NCBI GenBank assembly: GCA_003225335.1
Contig: QHZE01000454.1
Span: forward strand, 1 to 57,190
Source of the DNA: Acidobacteriota bacterium
GTDB taxonomy: Bacteria; Acidobacteriota; UBA6911
Reading direction: 5' to 3'
DNA: 57,190 bases
Part shown: positions 20,765 through 46,808 of the stretch, in pieces
Layout of the letters: every line of letters begins with the position of its first letter
Numbering within the stretch: position 1 is the first letter of the stretch
The notes under the pieces: model-generated
Told to the model about the DNA's origin: nothing
The model's database searches: none
What the model saw: the letters and a program-made list of their open reading frames with translations, nothing else
Program-made: the position numbers and the translations under genes

Positions 20765-20933
20765 AGACCTCAGACTTCAGAGATCATACCTCAGACCTAG
20801 AACGCTTGAATATCTGCGGGGCTTTCTGTCGTGCCCGGCTCAGTCTGAAGTCTGATCCCTAAGATCTGAAGTCTGACCCGAGCAGGCTAAAGCCTGAACT
20901 CCGAACACGCAGGCTAGGGCCTGTACTCCAAAC
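20765..20933. repeat. CAGACCT/AGTCTGA heptamer hairpin followed by two REP half-sites
   Basis: gacctcagacttcagag..cctcagacc ... gtctgaagtctga..tctgaagtctga (20765-20877); gcaggctaaagcctgaactcc and gcaggctagggcctgtactcc (20882-20933). Confidence 0.85.
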
Positions 20934-30824: not shown

Positions 30825-33454
30825 GGTTCACTCCCGGTGAGTTTCAAAAGAAGCTGCTGTGCTTTCTCGAAAGTCGGGGCGATTTCCAGTGCCCGAAGAG
30901 TCTCCTTCTTCGCCTCCTGCTTGCGGCCGGACTCCGACCACGCTCGCGCGAGGTTGAAGTGGGCTCCGGCGAGATCGGCCGGATTCAGCCCGACAAGAAC
31001 TTTATAGGCCGCGACCGCCGTCGCCCAATCGCGGGACTCCATGGCGGCTTCCCCCAGCATTGTATGCGCTGCCGGATCGTAGGGATGGATGTAGACGGAG
31101 AGCTGCAGCATCCGGGCCTCATTTTCCCAATCCTTACGTTCCCTGTAGATTTCCGCGGCGCGCATCAAAGGAGCCAGCGCGTTTTCGTCGTAACGGGACC
31201 AGCCGAGAAGTTGGGTGAGCGCCTCATCCGGCCGCTTTTCTTCCAAGTAGATATCAGCCAACACCTGGTACGGGTTCCCGGGTTCGACATATTCCGGAAA
31301 CAGCGCCTGCGCTTTCTTTAAATAGACCTCTGCCGCGCCGTTGGCTTTCTCTTTCTTTAAGATACCTCCCAGCTGCAGATTGGCGAAGAAGTCGTCCGGG
31401 TTCCGTTCCAGGACCCCCTTCAGAGCCTCCTTGGTCCGGCTCGACTCGTCACCCTCGGCGTGCCGCTGAAAATCCAGGTGGGGGGCAACTTCGCGAAGAC
31501 GCGCATCGACGTACCGGGCATATTCGGCATCCAAAGTCGCCGCATCCCAACCAAGAGAACGCCGGAAAACCTCGACCGTGGGGAGGCCCTCGGCAAACAA
31601 CAGCAGAGATTCTCGAATTTTGGCAAATCCGAATTTTTCCTCGATCAGCTCGCACACCAGCGAAGCCTGGTAATAGGAGAGCGCGACCTGCTCGGGAAAT
31701 TTCGGACGCATCATGCCGGAGTTCAGCTCGCTTACTTTGAGGACCTTTCCTTCCTTGTATGCTTTGACGAACGGCGCGTTCAGGTCGTCCCCCCAACCCG
31801 GTCGCGCCCGCCTTTCTTCGTACACTGAGATACCTTCCGAGAACCAGCGCGGAATGTTATGGCGAGTCATCTGGAGCGTAATCACGTGGGCAAACTCGTG
31901 CCACAGTGTCGATCCCCAGTTGAAAGAGCCGGGTTTCCGCGCGCGTGGGGAGTCGAGAGCTATCACCTTGCCGAAGCAGACGCCCAGCGCGCCCAGCCCC
32001 GGGAGGCCGAGTGTCCGAACCGCAAAACCGCCATGATCGGGGAAAATCTCCACCTGCAGGGGCCCCACGGGCTTGAAGCCGTATTTCTGGCTTAATTTCG
32101 CGAACACTTCTTCAGCGAGCTTCGGCGCATATACGGAGAGGACCGGCTCATCTTCTTTCGCCAGACGCAACAGAAAATGCTCGCTGCGCACCTCGACGAA
32201 CTTGTCCATCTGGTCCAGCAGATCCAGCGTATTGAAGGCCCAGACGTTGTACGGGTCCCCTTCGAATGCCTTCTGAACCGCCCGCCGGCCCTCGCTCAGT
32301 TCGCCGACGCGCATGAGATTCATCCCCAGGCTGGCCCAGGCGGCCCAGAGCTTGGGGTCCAGATTCAGCGCCTTGCGGTTGAACTCGATGGCCTCTGCGT
32401 ATTTTCGCCGATTGGCCAGATTCTCGGCGATGGTGAAGTAGAGCCGGCCGAAGGATGGATGAATCTCCAGGACCCTGCGCTCCGCCTGCGTGAACGCCGC
32501 CTGGTCCCCTCGAAATTGGTGATAAACGGCCTCCAGGCTGAGCGCTTCCAGGTCGGAGGGATTCACGGCCAACGCGCGGCGCACCTCGCGGATCGCCTCC
32601 TCGTAATTTTCCTCCTGGATGCGGAGTTCCGCCATCAGGTTGATCGCGGGGACCAGGTTGGGATTGACTTCAAGCGCCTTCCGCGCGTTTGCTTCCACTT
32701 CGTTGTTGTTTTCATATTTCTTCGCCAGCGCGATGCCCAGGAGGGCGTCGGCGTAGCGCGGGTTTGTCTTGAGGCAATCGCGGAACACTCCCAGCGCGTC
32801 GGTAGCGTTGTACTTCTCCAGAAAGAGGTAGCCGAAGCTCGCCAGCGCCTCGACCGAAACGTTCTTGCCGCTGGTCGCGTCCAGGAATATGTCTTTGGCG
32901 TCCTGCGCCCATCCCAACTGCCACGCCGCCACGGCCACATTTCCCAGGTCCTGGCTGCCGCCGACGGCGCCCTTCCGATACTCCTCGACGGTCCGCTGCC
33001 AGAGTCCTTCCGCTTCGCTCCGCCGCCCGGTCTCTTCCAACAGGAATCCAAGTTCGCGCACGGAGTCCAGGCGCGCGGGCCCGCCAAGCTGTGTCGCGCG
33101 GCGCAGGTGTTGCTCGGCTCCGCCGAGGTCTCCGGCGGCCTTGAACGAGCGTCCCATCTCCAGTTGCAGCTTGGCGGAATTTTCACGGGCCTTGAGGAAC
33201 TCGATCCCCCTCTTCAGCGCTTCCCGGTATTGTCCGGTTTCGCGCAGAACCTGCAAGAGGCCGGCCTGGTTTGCTTCGTCCTCCGCTCTGGATTTGAGCG
33301 CGTCCTCGAAGTGCGCTCGCGCCTTATCGTAATCGCCGGAACGCAACGCTTCGGCGCCCCTGGAGTTACTCTGCGCCCCGCCGGGACGCGTGGCAGAGCA
33401 GCACCCCAGAACGAAGAACAGCCCAAAGCCACACGCTGCAATTCTCGTCCCCAT
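30821..33454 (-). CDS. TPR-repeat protein with central gluzincin (peptidase MA-like) domain, possible lipoprotein
   Basis: Many TPR-like helices; LWHEFAHV..PRWFSEGISVYEE (HExxH plus E); N-terminal FFVLGC. Confidence 0.85.
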   Translation of the reverse strand: MGTRIAACGFGLFFVLGCCSATRPGGAQSNSRGAEALRSGDYDKARAHFEDALKSRAEDEANQAGLLQVLRETGQYREALKRGIEFLKARENSAKLQLEMGRSFKAAGDLGGAEQHLRRATQLGGPARLDSVRELGFLLEETGRRSEAEGLWQRTVEEYRKGAVGGSQDLGNVAVAAWQLGWAQDAKDIFLDATSGKNVSVEALASFGYLFLEKYNATDALGVFRDCLKTNPRYADALLGIALAKKYENNNEVEANARKALEVNPNLVPAINLMAELRIQEENYEEAIREVRRALAVNPSDLEALSLEAVYHQFRGDQAAFTQAERRVLEIHPSFGRLYFTIAENLANRRKYAEAIEFNRKALNLDPKLWAAWASLGMNLMRVGELSEGRRAVQKAFEGDPYNVWAFNTLDLLDQMDKFVEVRSEHFLLRLAKEDEPVLSVYAPKLAEEVFAKLSQKYGFKPVGPLQVEIFPDHGGFAVRTLGLPGLGALGVCFGKVIALDSPRARKPGSFNWGSTLWHEFAHVITLQMTRHNIPRWFSEGISVYEERRARPGWGDDLNAPFVKAYKEGKVLKVSELNSGMMRPKFPEQVALSYYQASLVCELIEEKFGFAKIRESLLLFAEGLPTVEVFRRSLGWDAATLDAEYARYVDARLREVAPHLDFQRHAEGDESSRTKEALKGVLERNPDDFFANLQLGGILKKEKANGAAEVYLKKAQALFPEYVEPGNPYQVLADIYLEEKRPDEALTQLLGWSRYDENALAPLMRAAEIYRERKDWENEARMLQLSVYIHPYDPAAHTMLGEAAMESRDWATAVAAYKVLVGLNPADLAGAHFNLARAWSESGRKQEAKKETLRALEIAPTFEKAQQLLLKLTGSEP

Positions 33455-33477
33455 GGAGAATTCTTTCGACCAAAATC

Positions 33478-33560
33478 CTCTTCGCGTCTTCGCGTCTTTG
33501 TGGTGAAGGCGGAGTGCCCTTTCACCACAAAGACGCGAAGACGCAAAGAATCGCAAAGAA
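33478..33560. repeat. TTCGCGTCTT / AAGACGCGAA hairpin
   Basis: ttcgcgtcttcgcgtctttgtggtgaa ... ttcaccacaaagacgcgaagacgcaaagaa. Confidence 0.9.
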
Positions 33561-33571
33561 CTTTCTGCCTT

Positions 33572-34750
33572 TCATTTGTTCTTACGCAATTTTGCGTTGA
33601 TAGTTGCCAGGCGAACCAGAAGTCCCTCCAGTTTCTTCTCGTACTCGGCTTCGGGCATTTCGGACCTGGCATACTTCAAGGCTTCAATCTGCCTTTCAAC
33701 TGTTTGCATTTCTGCTAATAGAGCCTCTTCCTCCGGGGTGCCCTTTCCCCGGGCCCACGCTGGAACCCCCGTGTCCAGGTAGGTAGTCCGCGCCAGGAAT
33801 CCTTCGCCGTTCTCCGGGCCGGGATCACTTTGCCCCTTTCCGTCGCCATCGTCATCCAGGACTGGATGCTCCGTCTTCAGAAGGCCCTGAGTGGAGTAAT
33901 ACTCTTCCACCTTGTGAGCGGCGTAATTGAAGGCTTCGAGGACGGAAACACGGCCGTTCTTGTCCGAATCCGCATTTCCGTTCTTGAAGGCTTCGACAAA
34001 AAACCTTCCCATCTGAGTCTGGTTCTTTTCCATACCGCTCTTGGTAGCCGAGACCACGATCTTCCCCTTCTGCGAGAGCGCGGGAACACTGGCTCCGCTG
34101 CAAGTAGTCATGTTGGCCACGACAAATCGCGCGGCGGGTATCGAATACAATATGGAGGCCAGTTCCTCGGCGGTCGGATCCGGGCCGGGAAGATTTAACT
34201 TGTAAGTCTTCGCGTCAAAGTTGCCATGGCCGGCAATGAAGACGAAAACCAGATCGTCCTTTCCCACGCGGGATGCGATCTCACGGCAAACCTTTTCCAG
34301 GTTCTCCCGCGTGGATTTGTAGGAAATCAGGCCGGGGTCTTTGGAGGGGTCGTCGAACAGGACAAAAACGTGGCCGCGATCAAACTGCATGGGCCCCGCA
34401 AGGGCAGCGTGAAGATCGCGAATCCACTTCAAGAACTCCTCCTGCAGCTCCGGGTCGCCGCTGATCCCGGAAATTAAGATGGCCCAGCGCCCCTGCCCGG
34501 AATCGCTCGCGAGGGAAAACGGCGGCATCATTAAGAAGAGAGCGAGCACAGCCACACCCCACAGACGGAAGGCGAGGGGCAGAGGGGCGGAGGGACAGAG
34601 GGGCAAAGGGGCAGAGGGGCAGAGGAGCCGAGGGGCAGGGGGGCCGAGGGGCAGAGGGACAGAGGGCAAAAAGCTTCGTGAATGAAGGCCGTCGCAAGCC
34701 CTTCCCTTTGCCCCTCGACCCCTTGACCCCTTTGCCCCTAGTTTACTCAT
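33572..34750 (-). CDS. Exported caspase/legumain-fold (C13/C14-like) cysteine peptidase
   Basis: WAILISG, VFIAGHG (His), NMTTCSG (Cys), VVSAT, EF-hand-like DSDKNGRVSVLE, EHPVLDDDGDG. ATG 34750 overlaps the upstream TGA (ATGA). Confidence 0.75.
   Translation of the reverse strand: MSKLGAKGSRGRGAKGRACDGLHSRSFLPSVPLPLGPPAPRLLCPSAPLPLCPSAPLPLAFRLWGVAVLALFLMMPPFSLASDSGQGRWAILISGISGDPELQEEFLKWIRDLHAALAGPMQFDRGHVFVLFDDPSKDPGLISYKSTRENLEKVCREIASRVGKDDLVFVFIAGHGNFDAKTYKLNLPGPDPTAEELASILYSIPAARFVVANMTTCSGASVPALSQKGKIVVSATKSGMEKNQTQMGRFFVEAFKNGNADSDKNGRVSVLEAFNYAAHKVEEYYSTQGLLKTEHPVLDDDGDGKGQSDPGPENGEGFLARTTYLDTGVPAWARGKGTPEEEALLAEMQTVERQIEALKYARSEMPEAEYEKKLEGLLVRLATINAKLRKNK
34574..34740. repeat. AGGGGC(A) / TGCCCCT heptamer hairpin within the 5' end of the peptidase ORF
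   Basis: About 13 purine-rich units, then loop aaaagcttcgtgaatgaa, then ccctttgcccctcgaccccttgacccctttgcccct. Confidence 0.9.
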
Positions 34751-37047
34751 GCCAGACCCTTGCGTTTTCGCAGCACCCACTCGGCCGAGATCGATCCGAC
34801 CAGAAGCAGGTACAACAGCGGCATATCCCACAGGTCCTTTTCTTCGATCCTTGACGAGCCGTTGTCCACATAGGAAATATCTTCGGGCAACGTGCGGACA
34901 TCGCGCGGCGAGTAGTAATGGCCGCCCGTTTCTTCGGCCAACCGTTTGAGCAACCCGACATTGAGGGCCGCGTTGTGAAACTCAGCCGTAGACTCCGCTA
35001 TCCTGAAATTCGCTTTTGCTTTTCCGAGGCTTTTGGCGCCCTGGAGAGCTTCAACCGACACTTCGTGGATCCCCTCTTCCCTGGGACGGAAGATAGCCGA
35101 GTAATAGCCTTCCCGGCTTACGTCCCAGTTCAGCGGCAAGCTGACGGTCTCGCCCGAAGGGGATTTTACGTCTGCCTTCACGCGGGCGTTGTTTTGATGA
35201 ACGAAAGTATTGTCGGTTACTTCGGCGGTCAGAACCACCGCTTCTTCGAGCGAATAGGAATGCTTTTCTGTCTCGATGGTCACGGGATCCGGAGCGTCGC
35301 TCACGAGCCAGCGCAGCATCTGTTTCCAGAAGACTTCGTGCGTGGTGTTGCGGCTGTCGACCTGCATGCGCCAGTTCCACGTGGCCCCCGTGGTAAGAGC
35401 CATGGCCTTCCCGCGGCCGAAACGCTGGAAAGCCAGCAGAACCGGATTCTGTCCCCGTGCTCCGGAGAGTGCGACCTGAGCGAGCACGGTGGCCCCGGGT
35501 TTGGCTCCGGACGTGGGATTCAGGCCCACAAGGGGAGGCAGTGTTTCCCAACGCTTGCGGTTCTCATCCTCCGTAAGGGCAAGGCGCATCACCGGATGCA
35601 GGGCGCCGTAGCTGGTCAGGCGCAGCTTGTACTCCACATCCTCGTAAGGAGGGATGGAGGAATTCCCCTGACCGAAGCGGATGTTCACGGGAAGGACGTC
35701 CTCGAGCGGAGTATTGACATACCCTCCCTGTGCGAAAGAATTCTTTCCGCCGAGCATCAGAAGCCCGCCGCCGCGCTGGCTTACGAAATCGGAGATCATG
35801 CGGAGCTGGTCGAAGGTGAAGAACGTGGCCTCCACGCTGCCCAGTATCAGGCCCTTGAACGTGTAAAGCTCCCCCTTATCGGTCGGAAAGCCTTTTTCCA
35901 GCGTGGAAGTGCTGTTTTCGTCCAGACCCTGACGATAGAACTTGCCGTGCGCCTGACGCAGCAGCGTGAGCAGCCGCAGGTTCTTGTCCTCCTGGACCGC
36001 GCGCCGCAGGAACGCGTAAATCCAGCGAGGTTCGCCTTCGCAGTAGAGAATGCGCGGTTGCTCGTCCTCGACGCGAATCAGTACGTCCTGGTCGTTATTC
36101 TCGGCAATCACTTCGTCCTGAAAGGGTTCGACCCTGAAGTTGAAAATCCTGGGTCCCGCCGTGTCGCTGCTGAAGTTGACTTTGTAGGTCTTTACCTCGC
36201 CGTTGCTTCCGAGGGTGATTTCCTGACTCTGGACCAGCCGGTCGCGCTCTTTAACGACAAGTTTGGCGCGGCGCCCCGCGTACCCGGTTGCCCGAATTGC
36301 AACATCCGCCTCTATCATCGCGTCCTTGAGCACCTTCTTGGGCATGCTGACGCGGGCAATCTCCATGTCGCGCGAGAAGTCCGGCGATCCTATCCCGACC
36401 GGGTATACCGGGATCCGCCGGGCGCGGAGCTGGGCGGCAATGCCGCTCAAATCCTTGGAGCGGTTGTCGGCGCCATCCGTGATCAGAATGATTCCTGAAA
36501 CTGGCACAGTCCCCAGTTCTGCGACGATCTGGCCCAGGGTCCGTTCCAGATTGGTTGCATTTCCATGACGCGCCACGTCCTCGAAGCCCGAGCTCTTGTC
36601 GGCGGAATTCGAGAACCGGAAGTGGCGAACCTTGAATTTCTTCCCAAGCTCCTCCAGCATCGGATTGCCGACCGGCCTGAGGAGATGTTTCTCAATTTCG
36701 ATGCGCGACTGGCCCTCGGCTCCGTCGCGAATCTCCATGCTCTTGGTTACATCGTAAGCGACCGCAACAAAGCTCTTTTGCGGGGTCACCGTGTACAGAA
36801 TCAGAACGGGCTGAAGGAAGATTACCAGAAGGACAAGCAAAGAAAGGCCGCGAAGACCTGCGAGCCCCACGCGCCAGGGGATGGGCACCACTGCCTTGGT
36901 CTTGTGATACAGAAGATACGCGCCAACCAGTGCGGATCCGGCGAGGATCCAGGTGACGTAAGAGGGCCAGGGCGGTTGAAACGCAAGCTTCCCCTTTTCG
37001 AAAAGAAGAGGCCGGTACTTGAAGAAAAACTCAAAAATCGTATCCAT
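34747..37047 (-). CDS. Membrane protein with VWA, beta-sandwich and GATase1-like domains
   Basis: Two N-terminal TMs, DVTKSM..ITDG (VWA), ENN, LMLGGKNSF (GATase-like, no Cys), FGRGK, FWKQMLRWL, LAEETGGHY and C-terminal LWD..AEWVLRKRKGLA. Confidence 0.82.
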   Translation of the reverse strand: MDTIFEFFFKYRPLLFEKGKLAFQPPWPSYVTWILAGSALVGAYLLYHKTKAVVPIPWRVGLAGLRGLSLLVLLVIFLQPVLILYTVTPQKSFVAVAYDVTKSMEIRDGAEGQSRIEIEKHLLRPVGNPMLEELGKKFKVRHFRFSNSADKSSGFEDVARHGNATNLERTLGQIVAELGTVPVSGIILITDGADNRSKDLSGIAAQLRARRIPVYPVGIGSPDFSRDMEIARVSMPKKVLKDAMIEADVAIRATGYAGRRAKLVVKERDRLVQSQEITLGSNGEVKTYKVNFSSDTAGPRIFNFRVEPFQDEVIAENNDQDVLIRVEDEQPRILYCEGEPRWIYAFLRRAVQEDKNLRLLTLLRQAHGKFYRQGLDENSTSTLEKGFPTDKGELYTFKGLILGSVEATFFTFDQLRMISDFVSQRGGGLLMLGGKNSFAQGGYVNTPLEDVLPVNIRFGQGNSSIPPYEDVEYKLRLTSYGALHPVMRLALTEDENRKRWETLPPLVGLNPTSGAKPGATVLAQVALSGARGQNPVLLAFQRFGRGKAMALTTGATWNWRMQVDSRNTTHEVFWKQMLRWLVSDAPDPVTIETEKHSYSLEEAVVLTAEVTDNTFVHQNNARVKADVKSPSGETVSLPLNWDVSREGYYSAIFRPREEGIHEVSVEALQGAKSLGKAKANFRIAESTAEFHNAALNVGLLKRLAEETGGHYYSPRDVRTLPEDISYVDNGSSRIEEKDLWDMPLLYLLLVGSISAEWVLRKRKGLA

Positions 37048-46564: not shown

Positions 46565-46808
46565 TCCAAACCTCTGGACCGTATTTTCATGCGCTTGGGT
46601 GCGGCGCGCATGTAAGACTGCCGTCAGGCTCGGAGTTCAGGCTTTAGCCTGCTCGGACGCCGTGCAGACTGAAGGCTGAACTCCAAACCTGTGGACCGTA
46701 TTTTCATGCGCCTGGGTGCGGCCCCGGCGCATGCAAGACTAACGTTAGGCTCGGAGTTCAGGCTTTAGCCTGCTCGGACGCCGTGCAGACTGAAGGCTGA
46801 ACTCCAAA
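46565..46808 (+). repeat. Tandem duplication (117 + 121 bp), each unit containing a REP-like palindrome
   Basis: Both units read tccaaacct.tggaccgtattttcatgcgc.tgggtgcggc..gcgcatg.aagact..cgt.aggctcggagttcaggctttagcctgctcggacgccgtgcagactgaaggctgaac. Confidence 0.92.

Follow-up and report, generated by a model that had tools for sequence, protein, structure and literature searches.

Overlapping stop and start codons (ATGA) provide translational coupling in bacterial operons, and some Sec signals, such as those of autotransporters with the extended signal peptide region (ESPR), a conserved motif with a proposed function, carry a long N-terminal extension before a normal hydrophobic core and cleavage site. 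We analysed a locus that resembles both, on contig QHZE01000454.1 of an Acidobacteriota bacterium (57,190 nt; this whole stretch is referred to as the window). A 166-nt hairpin of tandem repeat units (34574–34739, minus strand) lies inside the open reading frame (ORF) of a predicted caspase-fold peptidase, between an ATG at 34750 that overlaps the upstream stop codon and a putative signal peptide. From the comparison with relatives and sister strains, we think that this hairpin is probably translated from the coupled ATG 34750 and removed together with the signal peptide.

The locus shares with ATGA coupling a start that overlaps the upstream stop and is conserved in the family, with a synonymous position selected to keep the start codon. 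Unlike in the usual case, a stem of about −100 kcal/mol follows the start almost directly, and a reinitiating ribosome would have to melt it. The likeness to the ESPR is the long N-terminal extension ahead of an otherwise normal core and cleavage site, whereas the extension itself is a fast-evolving, low-complexity translation of a repeat without conserved sequence.

Rickettsia palindromic elements (RPEs) and other intragenic repeats resembling miniature inverted-repeat transposable elements form in-frame fusions with host ORFs (PMC10969869), so the precedent to which a preliminary description of this locus had appealed, the in-frame insertion of RPEs into ORFs, is indeed established. Like an RPE, the hairpin studied here belongs to a multi-copy palindromic repeat, sits in a coding gene in frame and free of stops, and is seemingly tolerated as a dispensable peptide; insertions of the same kind also recur in several lineages. 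Unlike RPEs, it encodes no conserved element peptide, and its arms, made of tandem 7–10-nt units, vary in sequence between copies and lineages. It sits not in the body of a folded domain but only a few codons behind a stop-overlapping start, in what is predicted to be the n-region of a cleaved signal peptide; its length evolves by gain and loss of units filtered to triple units; and the genome that carries it is that of a free-living soil Acidobacterium and not a reduced intracellular one. Judged without direct comparison with RPE sequences, the tandem 8-nt arms, the unrelated units and peptides in relatives and the peptide polymorphism within the lineage place it outside the RPE family. A further difference from RPEs is the repeated capture of unrelated tandem-unit hairpins at one signal-peptide junction behind a stop-overlapping start.

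The arms themselves recall the paired tandem-repeat sites of Geobacter metallireducens, classes 1–3 of the "global regulator binding sites" with 3–5 tandem repeats of 7–9 nt, which passages of PMC2700814 present as two short tandem-repeat blocks on opposite strands at variable distance, in many copies and mostly between genes. In contrast to the window hairpin, those sites are read there as protein-binding sites, and their unit sequences differ; the passages of PMC2700814 on these sites describe no translation of them as part of a signal peptide.

The hairpin and the reading frame of the peptidase gene

The ATG at 34750–34748 overlaps the TGA at 34749–34747 of a 766-aa upstream gene as ATGA. 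From this ATG the frame is open for 392 codons, up to the stop at 33572–33574, and passes through the whole hairpin (codons 4–59) into a hydrophobic segment. Direct reading confirmed the overlap and the open frame of the preliminary description; it had put the length of the hairpin at 167 nt instead of 166. The features of the locus are as follows.

34747–37047, minus strand: upstream gene for a 766-aa membrane protein (GATase1_like, weak VWA match), with its TGA at 34747–34749
34748–34750, minus strand: ATG overlapping the upstream TGA (ATGA), the conserved peptidase start and proposed site of termination-reinitiation coupling
34704–34739, minus strand: 5' arm of the hairpin, about 4.5 tandem 8-nt units (AGGGGCAA-like), in frame reading GAKGSRGRGAKG
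34667–34703, minus strand: loop or spacer of the hairpin, 37 nt, in frame approximately RACDGLHSRSF
34574–34666, minus strand: 3' arm of the hairpin, 11.6 tandem 8-nt units (TGCCCCTC, mRNA sense), in frame reading LPSVPLPLGPPAPRLLCPSAPLPLCPSAPLPL
34547–34560, minus strand: rival start region, with a Shine–Dalgarno (SD)-like GGGGTG at 34560–34555, GTG codon 66 (34555–34553) and GTG codon 68 (34549–34547)
34508–34564, minus strand: hydrophobic core and cleavage region of the signal peptide, L63–A81 LWGVAVLALFLMMPPFSLA, with a predicted signal peptidase I site between SLA and SD
33572–34507, minus strand: mature clan CD (legumain/C13-like, caspase-fold) peptidase, stop 33572–33574 included

The peptide encoded by the hairpin is followed by R62, the hydrophobic LWGVAVLALFLMMPPF, the SLA/SD junction and then the conserved RWAILISG of the mature protein; read as a whole, the region 3' of the hairpin gives LWGVAVLALFLMMPPFSLA and, across the predicted cleavage site, SDSGQGRW. 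By inspection, the segment has the core, the small-x-small motif and the positive n-region of a Sec signal, although an n-region of 62 residues is atypical. The best 12-aa Kyte–Doolittle window of the segment is 2.55. Predicted tryptic peptides of the extension include ACDGLHSR and SFLPSVPLPLGPPAPR.

The RNA of the hairpin folds with a minimum free energy of about −96 to −105 kcal/mol, according to the stretch folded (z = −3.9), and the base of the stem brings both flanks together. A scan of 34300–35000 found no promoter-like or terminator-like site between the membrane-protein gene and the peptidase gene. An intrinsic (Rho-independent) terminator was likewise rejected, as no terminator-like site lies in this region and the 3' arm is followed by CGCCTTCCGTCTGTGGGG.

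We picture the hairpin as a copy of the abundant stop-proximal palindromic repeats of this genome. Because stop and start overlap and leave no intergenic space, the element would have landed about 11 nt into the peptidase gene, in codons 4–59. Ribosomes ending the upstream membrane-protein gene would reinitiate at ATG 34750, then melt and translate the hairpin, which would add about 56 residues ahead of the export signal, with about 62 low-complexity residues in all preceding the hydrophobic core. Signal peptidase I would cleave after SLA (A81), so that the extension is lost and leaves no trace in the mature caspase-fold enzyme. Selection would then act on the reading frame and the absence of stops only, and not on the peptide sequence. 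We infer that ribosomes start at ATG 34750 and read through the stem, that the long n-region still directs the product to Sec and that cleavage follows.

Other start codons had to be considered. The preliminary description had allowed only TTG codons inside the repeat as other in-frame starts ahead of the core. Codons 28 and 49 are indeed TTG, but GTG 34555 and GTG 34549, at the very start of the hydrophobic core, had been overlooked. Two in-frame ATGs, 34531 and 34528, fall within the core, and the first of these is the start in the public call on the window contig (P0121, 319 aa), which thereby loses the signal peptide. If that call were right, the gene product would be a 319-aa cytoplasmic protein and everything upstream of ATG 34531 would be non-coding. 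This is the version carried on the 57,190-bp contig in NCBI-derived sources. We regard it as very improbable, since the start would lie inside the hydrophobic segment and delete the signal peptide, whereas the orthologue N-termini that were inspected all have an equivalent segment. There is no SD-like site for such a start (−1.4 and +1.6 kcal/mol), and the public pipelines themselves disagree on the length of the product, giving 392, 368, 344 and 319 aa.

Orthologous junctions with and without hairpins

The comparison covered 191 orthologous loci, which were chosen by the mature domain only and came from the same GTDB family, a scan of genome contigs and a scan of metagenome contigs. The stop of the upstream gene was located by homology, its C-terminus being conserved in 174 of the 178 analysable loci. 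We found the base before this stop to be in phase with the peptidase in 137 of 148 distinct junctions, and in 129 of the 148 an ATG, GTG or TTG overlaps the stop, in phase and with an open frame. The stop itself is TGA (NTGA) in 142/149 junctions. Upstream genes that end in an Ala codon use GCA, which creates the ATGA, in 44/79 cases, as against a background of 9.6% in the same genes (p ~ 2e-24).

The preliminary description had suggested a comparison with orthologues that lack the repeat. In these hairpin-less relatives, the overlapping start leads directly into a normal signal peptide, for example MRVLVQNLIFKICACLVSLVAGCLMFSGAMRA in L026. The excess of GCA, the 129 in-phase overlapping starts and the signal peptides of the hairpin-less relatives together point to ATG 34750 as the ancestral start. 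At the 34750 junction, stop and start share bases and the overlap is conserved. On this comparative evidence, ATG 34750 is the conserved start of the family and the proposed site of translational coupling, and the hairpin lies inside ancestral coding sequence.

Three orthologues that are 70%, 70% and 66% identical (L113, L115 and L119) have spacers of 374–395 nt without a significant inverted repeat, which are still in phase and open. These spacers may be old, decayed insertions kept as long N-terminal extensions.

An inverted repeat was taken as significant at a score of at least 15, the maximum for shuffled spacers being 14. Fourteen distinct orthologous junctions carry one, with at least nine unit families, and their host peptidases are 33–65% identical to that of the window. 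The units include ACGTGAAT, GTGCATTC, GCAGATAAAC, CACGAAGA, CAGTCGG/CAGTGGG and a GTCAGCC-like unit, besides the GGACAGGA palindrome, GAGGGGCA and two long complex structures; hairpins at orthologous junctions carry unrelated units and encode unrelated peptides. Thirteen of the 14 junctions are in phase and open (binomial against 1/3, 6e-6), or 12/13 when the window is excluded. The spacers of the in-phase junctions range from 107 to 452 nt, every one of them 2 mod 3. The sole exception, L005 (G038:C3), has a single-base indel in the codons of the hydrophobic core that breaks the phase; it is either an assembly error or a pseudogene, and the related protein P0112 is intact.

The distribution of stop codons follows the same frame. 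Within the 14 hairpin intervals there are no stops in the coupled frame, 15 in the +1 frame and 16 in the +2 frame, and all 14 hairpins are stop-free in the coupled frame, as against 5/14 and 2/14 in the others (Fisher 4e-6). Hairpins whose units include TGA or TAA triplets (L179, L171 and L174) are no exception. L004 and L028 lack any usable in-frame start (ATG, GTG or TTG) after the hairpin and ahead of the hydrophobic core, so a signal peptide could be made there only by reading through the hairpin. In several relatives, the residues ahead of the core come from the loop or the 3' arm.

These data also bear on the second part of an either-or in the preliminary description, which had proposed that junction hairpins are disposable extensions of cleaved signal peptides or are removed or bypassed at the RNA level. 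If, for example, the hairpin were excised, processed and re-ligated out of the mRNA, or skipped by hopping ribosomes, the repeat residues would be missing from the protein. The sole support for such a process is the very stable stem that brings its flanks together; no joint is indicated. It would let the interior of a hairpin hold stops and change in length by any number of units, whereas the interiors in relatives are stop-free in the coupled frame only (0, 15 and 16 stops), the length changes described below are all multiples of 3, and loop or 3'-arm sequence supplies residues ahead of the core as just mentioned. We therefore give RNA-level removal hardly any credence. The first part, a disposable extension of the signal peptide, is supported at the 34750 junction by the comparative and population evidence.

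Variation within the lineage and across the genome

The 392-aa product belongs to a 90% cluster of 64 members. The DNA of this lineage was sampled via the 319-aa calls, which are blind to the state of the hairpin, plus the 344-, 368- and 392-aa calls, giving 22 contigs free of gaps, among which the junction has 14 distinct sequences. Measured from the coupled start to R88, the alleles are 261, 237 (by two different deletions) and 189 nt long. The 3' arm has thus undergone two different deletions of 24 nt and one of 72 nt, and L202 lacks 24 nt (3 units) in its 5' arm; as a scaffold gap interrupts the 3' arm of L202, only its 5'-arm deletion was used. All four independent changes of repeat number are multiples of 24 nt, that is of three 8-nt units (chance 0.012). 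The longest and best internal homologies are 16 nt apart. None of the 22 gap-free contigs has an out-of-frame or stop-containing allele at this junction. A phase-variation switch by repeat number was considered and rejected, as 0/22 contigs are out of frame and the frame survives each of the four length changes.

Sister strains have ATG or GTG as the coupled start. Amino-acid changes in the extension are frequent (S9A, R12P, G13R, L22F, P40R and others). Among the 261-nt alleles, the extension has 0 synonymous and 4 non-synonymous polymorphisms in 195 nt, and the mature part 4 and 4 in 915 nt; the contrast is not significant (p = 0.21), and its direction fits an unconstrained peptide. It looks from these alleles as if the peptide sequence of the extension were free and the frame were not. 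A candidate compensatory pair, 34714 G>C with 34632 C>G, was not used, because the two sites pair only in an alternative register (probability 0.46). All four haplotype combinations of these sites are present in the population, so they are not evidence for pairing.

The next junction downstream provides a contrast.

33479–33559, minus strand: neighbouring tandem-unit hairpin, between the peptidase stop (ATGA; ATG 33575–33573) and the ATG 33454–33452 of a TPR/Peptidase_MA lipoprotein gene

This TPR/Peptidase_MA gene has its own ATG (33454) and a lipoprotein-type signal, MGTRIAACGFGLFFVLGC, after the hairpin. The junction (33452–33575) is polymorphic in the population, with alleles of 111, 121 and 123 nt. 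In the 121-nt allele, found in three contigs including the window, the overlapping ATG is out of frame and its frame runs into a TGA 17 codons on; the 111-nt allele differs from this one by the lack of 10 nt, which restores the frame. The changes 33533 T>G and 33495 A>C form a clean compensatory pair that preserves the stem (pair probability 1.0). With a start of its own after the hairpin and an out-of-frame allele, this junction looks as an untranslated hairpin is expected to look, and the frame is not strictly kept where the normal start comes after the hairpin. The four cases of in-frame hairpins that the preliminary description had counted in the window are therefore not all equivalent.

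The genome (7.54 Mb, 58.7% G+C) contains at least 768 hairpins with arms of tandem 6–12-nt units, about 14 of them within the window, and nine of the 768 belong to the unit class AAAGGGGC. The hairpin at 34574–34739 is a member of this multi-copy palindromic population. A tandem unit of 7 or 8 nt runs through all three frames, so an arm is open in all frames or in none. Using a trained codon model, we examined 376 sites at which a confirmed coding frame points away from a hairpin, and open frames across hairpins were not enriched genome-wide, with 119/376 in the gene frame as against 112 and 119 in the control frames. Since there is no excess in the gene frame, an open frame alone is uninformative, and we turned instead to the phase of the start and to comparison between relatives.

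When putative stop-overlapping starts across the genome are sorted by their phase to the downstream gene, the counts are 23/43/29, so the in-phase class is not enriched and in-phase overlapping starts were rejected as a general feature of the genome. Five other loci in the genome are in-phase candidates without a signal peptide after the hairpin, and these are probably chance. Among the six co-directional hairpin junctions that the scan captured in the window, only the 34750 junction is in phase with the position of a stop-overlapping start; the neighbouring junction with the 121-nt allele does not belong to these six. Consequently, the extension of the idea to junction hairpins as a class fails on both counts, 119 against 112 and 119 of 376, and 23/43/29. 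The preliminary description had also named, as a finding that would tell against its proposal, open frames across such repeats being no commoner than chance. Genome-wide this is what we found, and the comparison is too blunt to refute the 34750 locus.

Two unlinked copies of one 10-nt-unit hairpin (CGCCGATGAA-like; G000 C313:1101-1167 and C640:9219-9285) come after a stop-overlapping ATGA or GTGA, with no signal peptide after either. In the frame of the downstream gene both encode a near-identical peptide, ..KRNETAD.RRFT.M.PTKIGV.RRASAV, a likeness that may be chance or may mean that part of the element carries its own flank. Elsewhere in the window, a 121-nt unit containing the GCAGGCTAAAGCCTGAAC motif stands in tandem at 46565–46808 (2.1 copies, 92% match), and the motif occurs again at 20882–20933.

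The distance from the upstream stop to the hairpin is 15 nt or less in 95 of 163 co-directional gene-hairpin-gene junctions, suggesting that hairpins are targeted to the 3' ends of genes or selected there. One could imagine that tandem-unit hairpins are placed or kept this close to stops as 3'-end or inter-cistronic RNA structures that set the expression ratio of neighbouring genes, and that at overlap junctions, where they lie within the gene, they slow reinitiating ribosomes as a helicase-limited throttle. We hold this to be rather improbable. If it were true, less of the secreted caspase-fold protease, a potentially dangerous enzyme, would be made in relation to its membrane partner, while the signal peptide would hide the encoded peptide. 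On this view, the repeated arrival of unrelated hairpins at one junction, in at least nine lineages, would be due to selection for structure, not only tolerance.

Start codon choice and the case against translation through the hairpin

Several observations weigh against translation of the hairpin from ATG 34750. The hairpin interval 34574–34739 is stop-free in all three sense frames, so its open frame is uninformative, and its phase alone has a chance of 1/3; the genome as a whole has no tendency to keep hairpins in frame. A stem of about −96 to −105 kcal/mol from about 11 nt after the ATG should hinder elongation, and an n-region of 62 residues is unusual for a Sec signal. A start after the hairpin is feasible at GTG 34549, with the SD-like GGGGTG at good spacing, and in L002 and some other relatives the start seems to lie immediately ahead of the hydrophobic core, leaving no charged n-region. 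Finally, the sample within the lineage is small, with four indels, and some of the 14 orthologous hairpins may share ancestry.

Several of these observations fit a start that has moved to GTG 34549 (or 34555), 3' of the hairpin. The hairpin would then be untranslated or translated incidentally, its open frame being a by-product of the stop-free G/C-rich unit; we include here a mixed version in which both starts are used. Frames open in all three registers and the lack of genome-wide enrichment of open or in-phase frames are what such a start would give. The GGGGTG lies 5 nt before GTG 34549, with an anti-SD duplex of −8.5 kcal/mol (−2.3 for GTG 34555). In L002 (G003:C49), from the closest GTDB species and 72% identical, there is no hairpin, the coupled ATG is out of frame and a new ATG stands directly before the hydrophobic core (MSVAFVSLCLWFFVVAPASA), without a charged n-region; several further orthologues are annotated with short uncharged N-termini.

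A start at these GTG codons, however, predicts no frame constraint upstream of it, yet all four length changes in the lineage are multiples of 24 nt and no contig of the 22 is out of frame. Nor would it account for the other hairpin-bearing junctions, 12 of 13 of which keep the phase and have the coupled frame as their only one without stops. GTG 34549 is CTG in L197 and L198, and a start there would leave a hydrophobic stretch of 13–15 residues without an n-region. As to the SD-like site, 17% of random internal ATGs also have a duplex of −6 kcal/mol or stronger, and with a moderate use of SD sites in this genome (38% versus 17%) the SD analysis is not decisive for the peptidase start. We consider a start after the hairpin unlikely, though the least unlikely of the alternatives, and prefer initiation at ATG 34750 with removal of the translated hairpin by signal peptidase.

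The peptidase and the meaning of the frame constraint

The protein had been called a caspase-fold peptidase from its sequence. A search of PDB sequences with the profile of the peptidase family gave no match, and a fold search was used in its place. The AlphaFold2 model of the peptidase (pLDDT 82, pTM 0.76) has legumains, metacaspases and MALT1 as its top Foldseek matches in the PDB (probability 1.00, TM 0.45–0.56). In Pfam, the window copy scores 16.4 bits for Peptidase_C13 (PF01650; E = 0.007), below the gathering threshold of 22.8 bits, and 22 of the 25 family members match PF01650 weakly, the best at 8e-6. H92-G93 is invariant in the family, and the window peptidase has a Cys in NMTTCSG, which would make a putative catalytic His-Gly...Cys dyad. 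On the modelled structure, the caspase-fold label is thus confirmed at the level of the fold. The position of the presumed catalytic Cys is Ala in some members of the family, and given this Ala, part of the family may be catalytically inactive.

If the hairpin is translated as we propose, the locus is a natural experiment which indicates that a very stable 166-nt repeat hairpin can sit in a bacterial coding sequence with selection visible only on the frame. That selection would be seen in unit gains and losses filtered to triples and in stops barred from one frame only. Four disagreeing product lengths and a public call without the signal peptide lead us to infer that secreted proteins of repeat-rich Acidobacteriota are probably systematically mis-started and mis-localised in annotation. 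Compact operons with overlapping stop and start codons would force intergenic repeats into genes, and the n-region of a cleaved signal peptide would be a safe harbour for such palindromic repeats.

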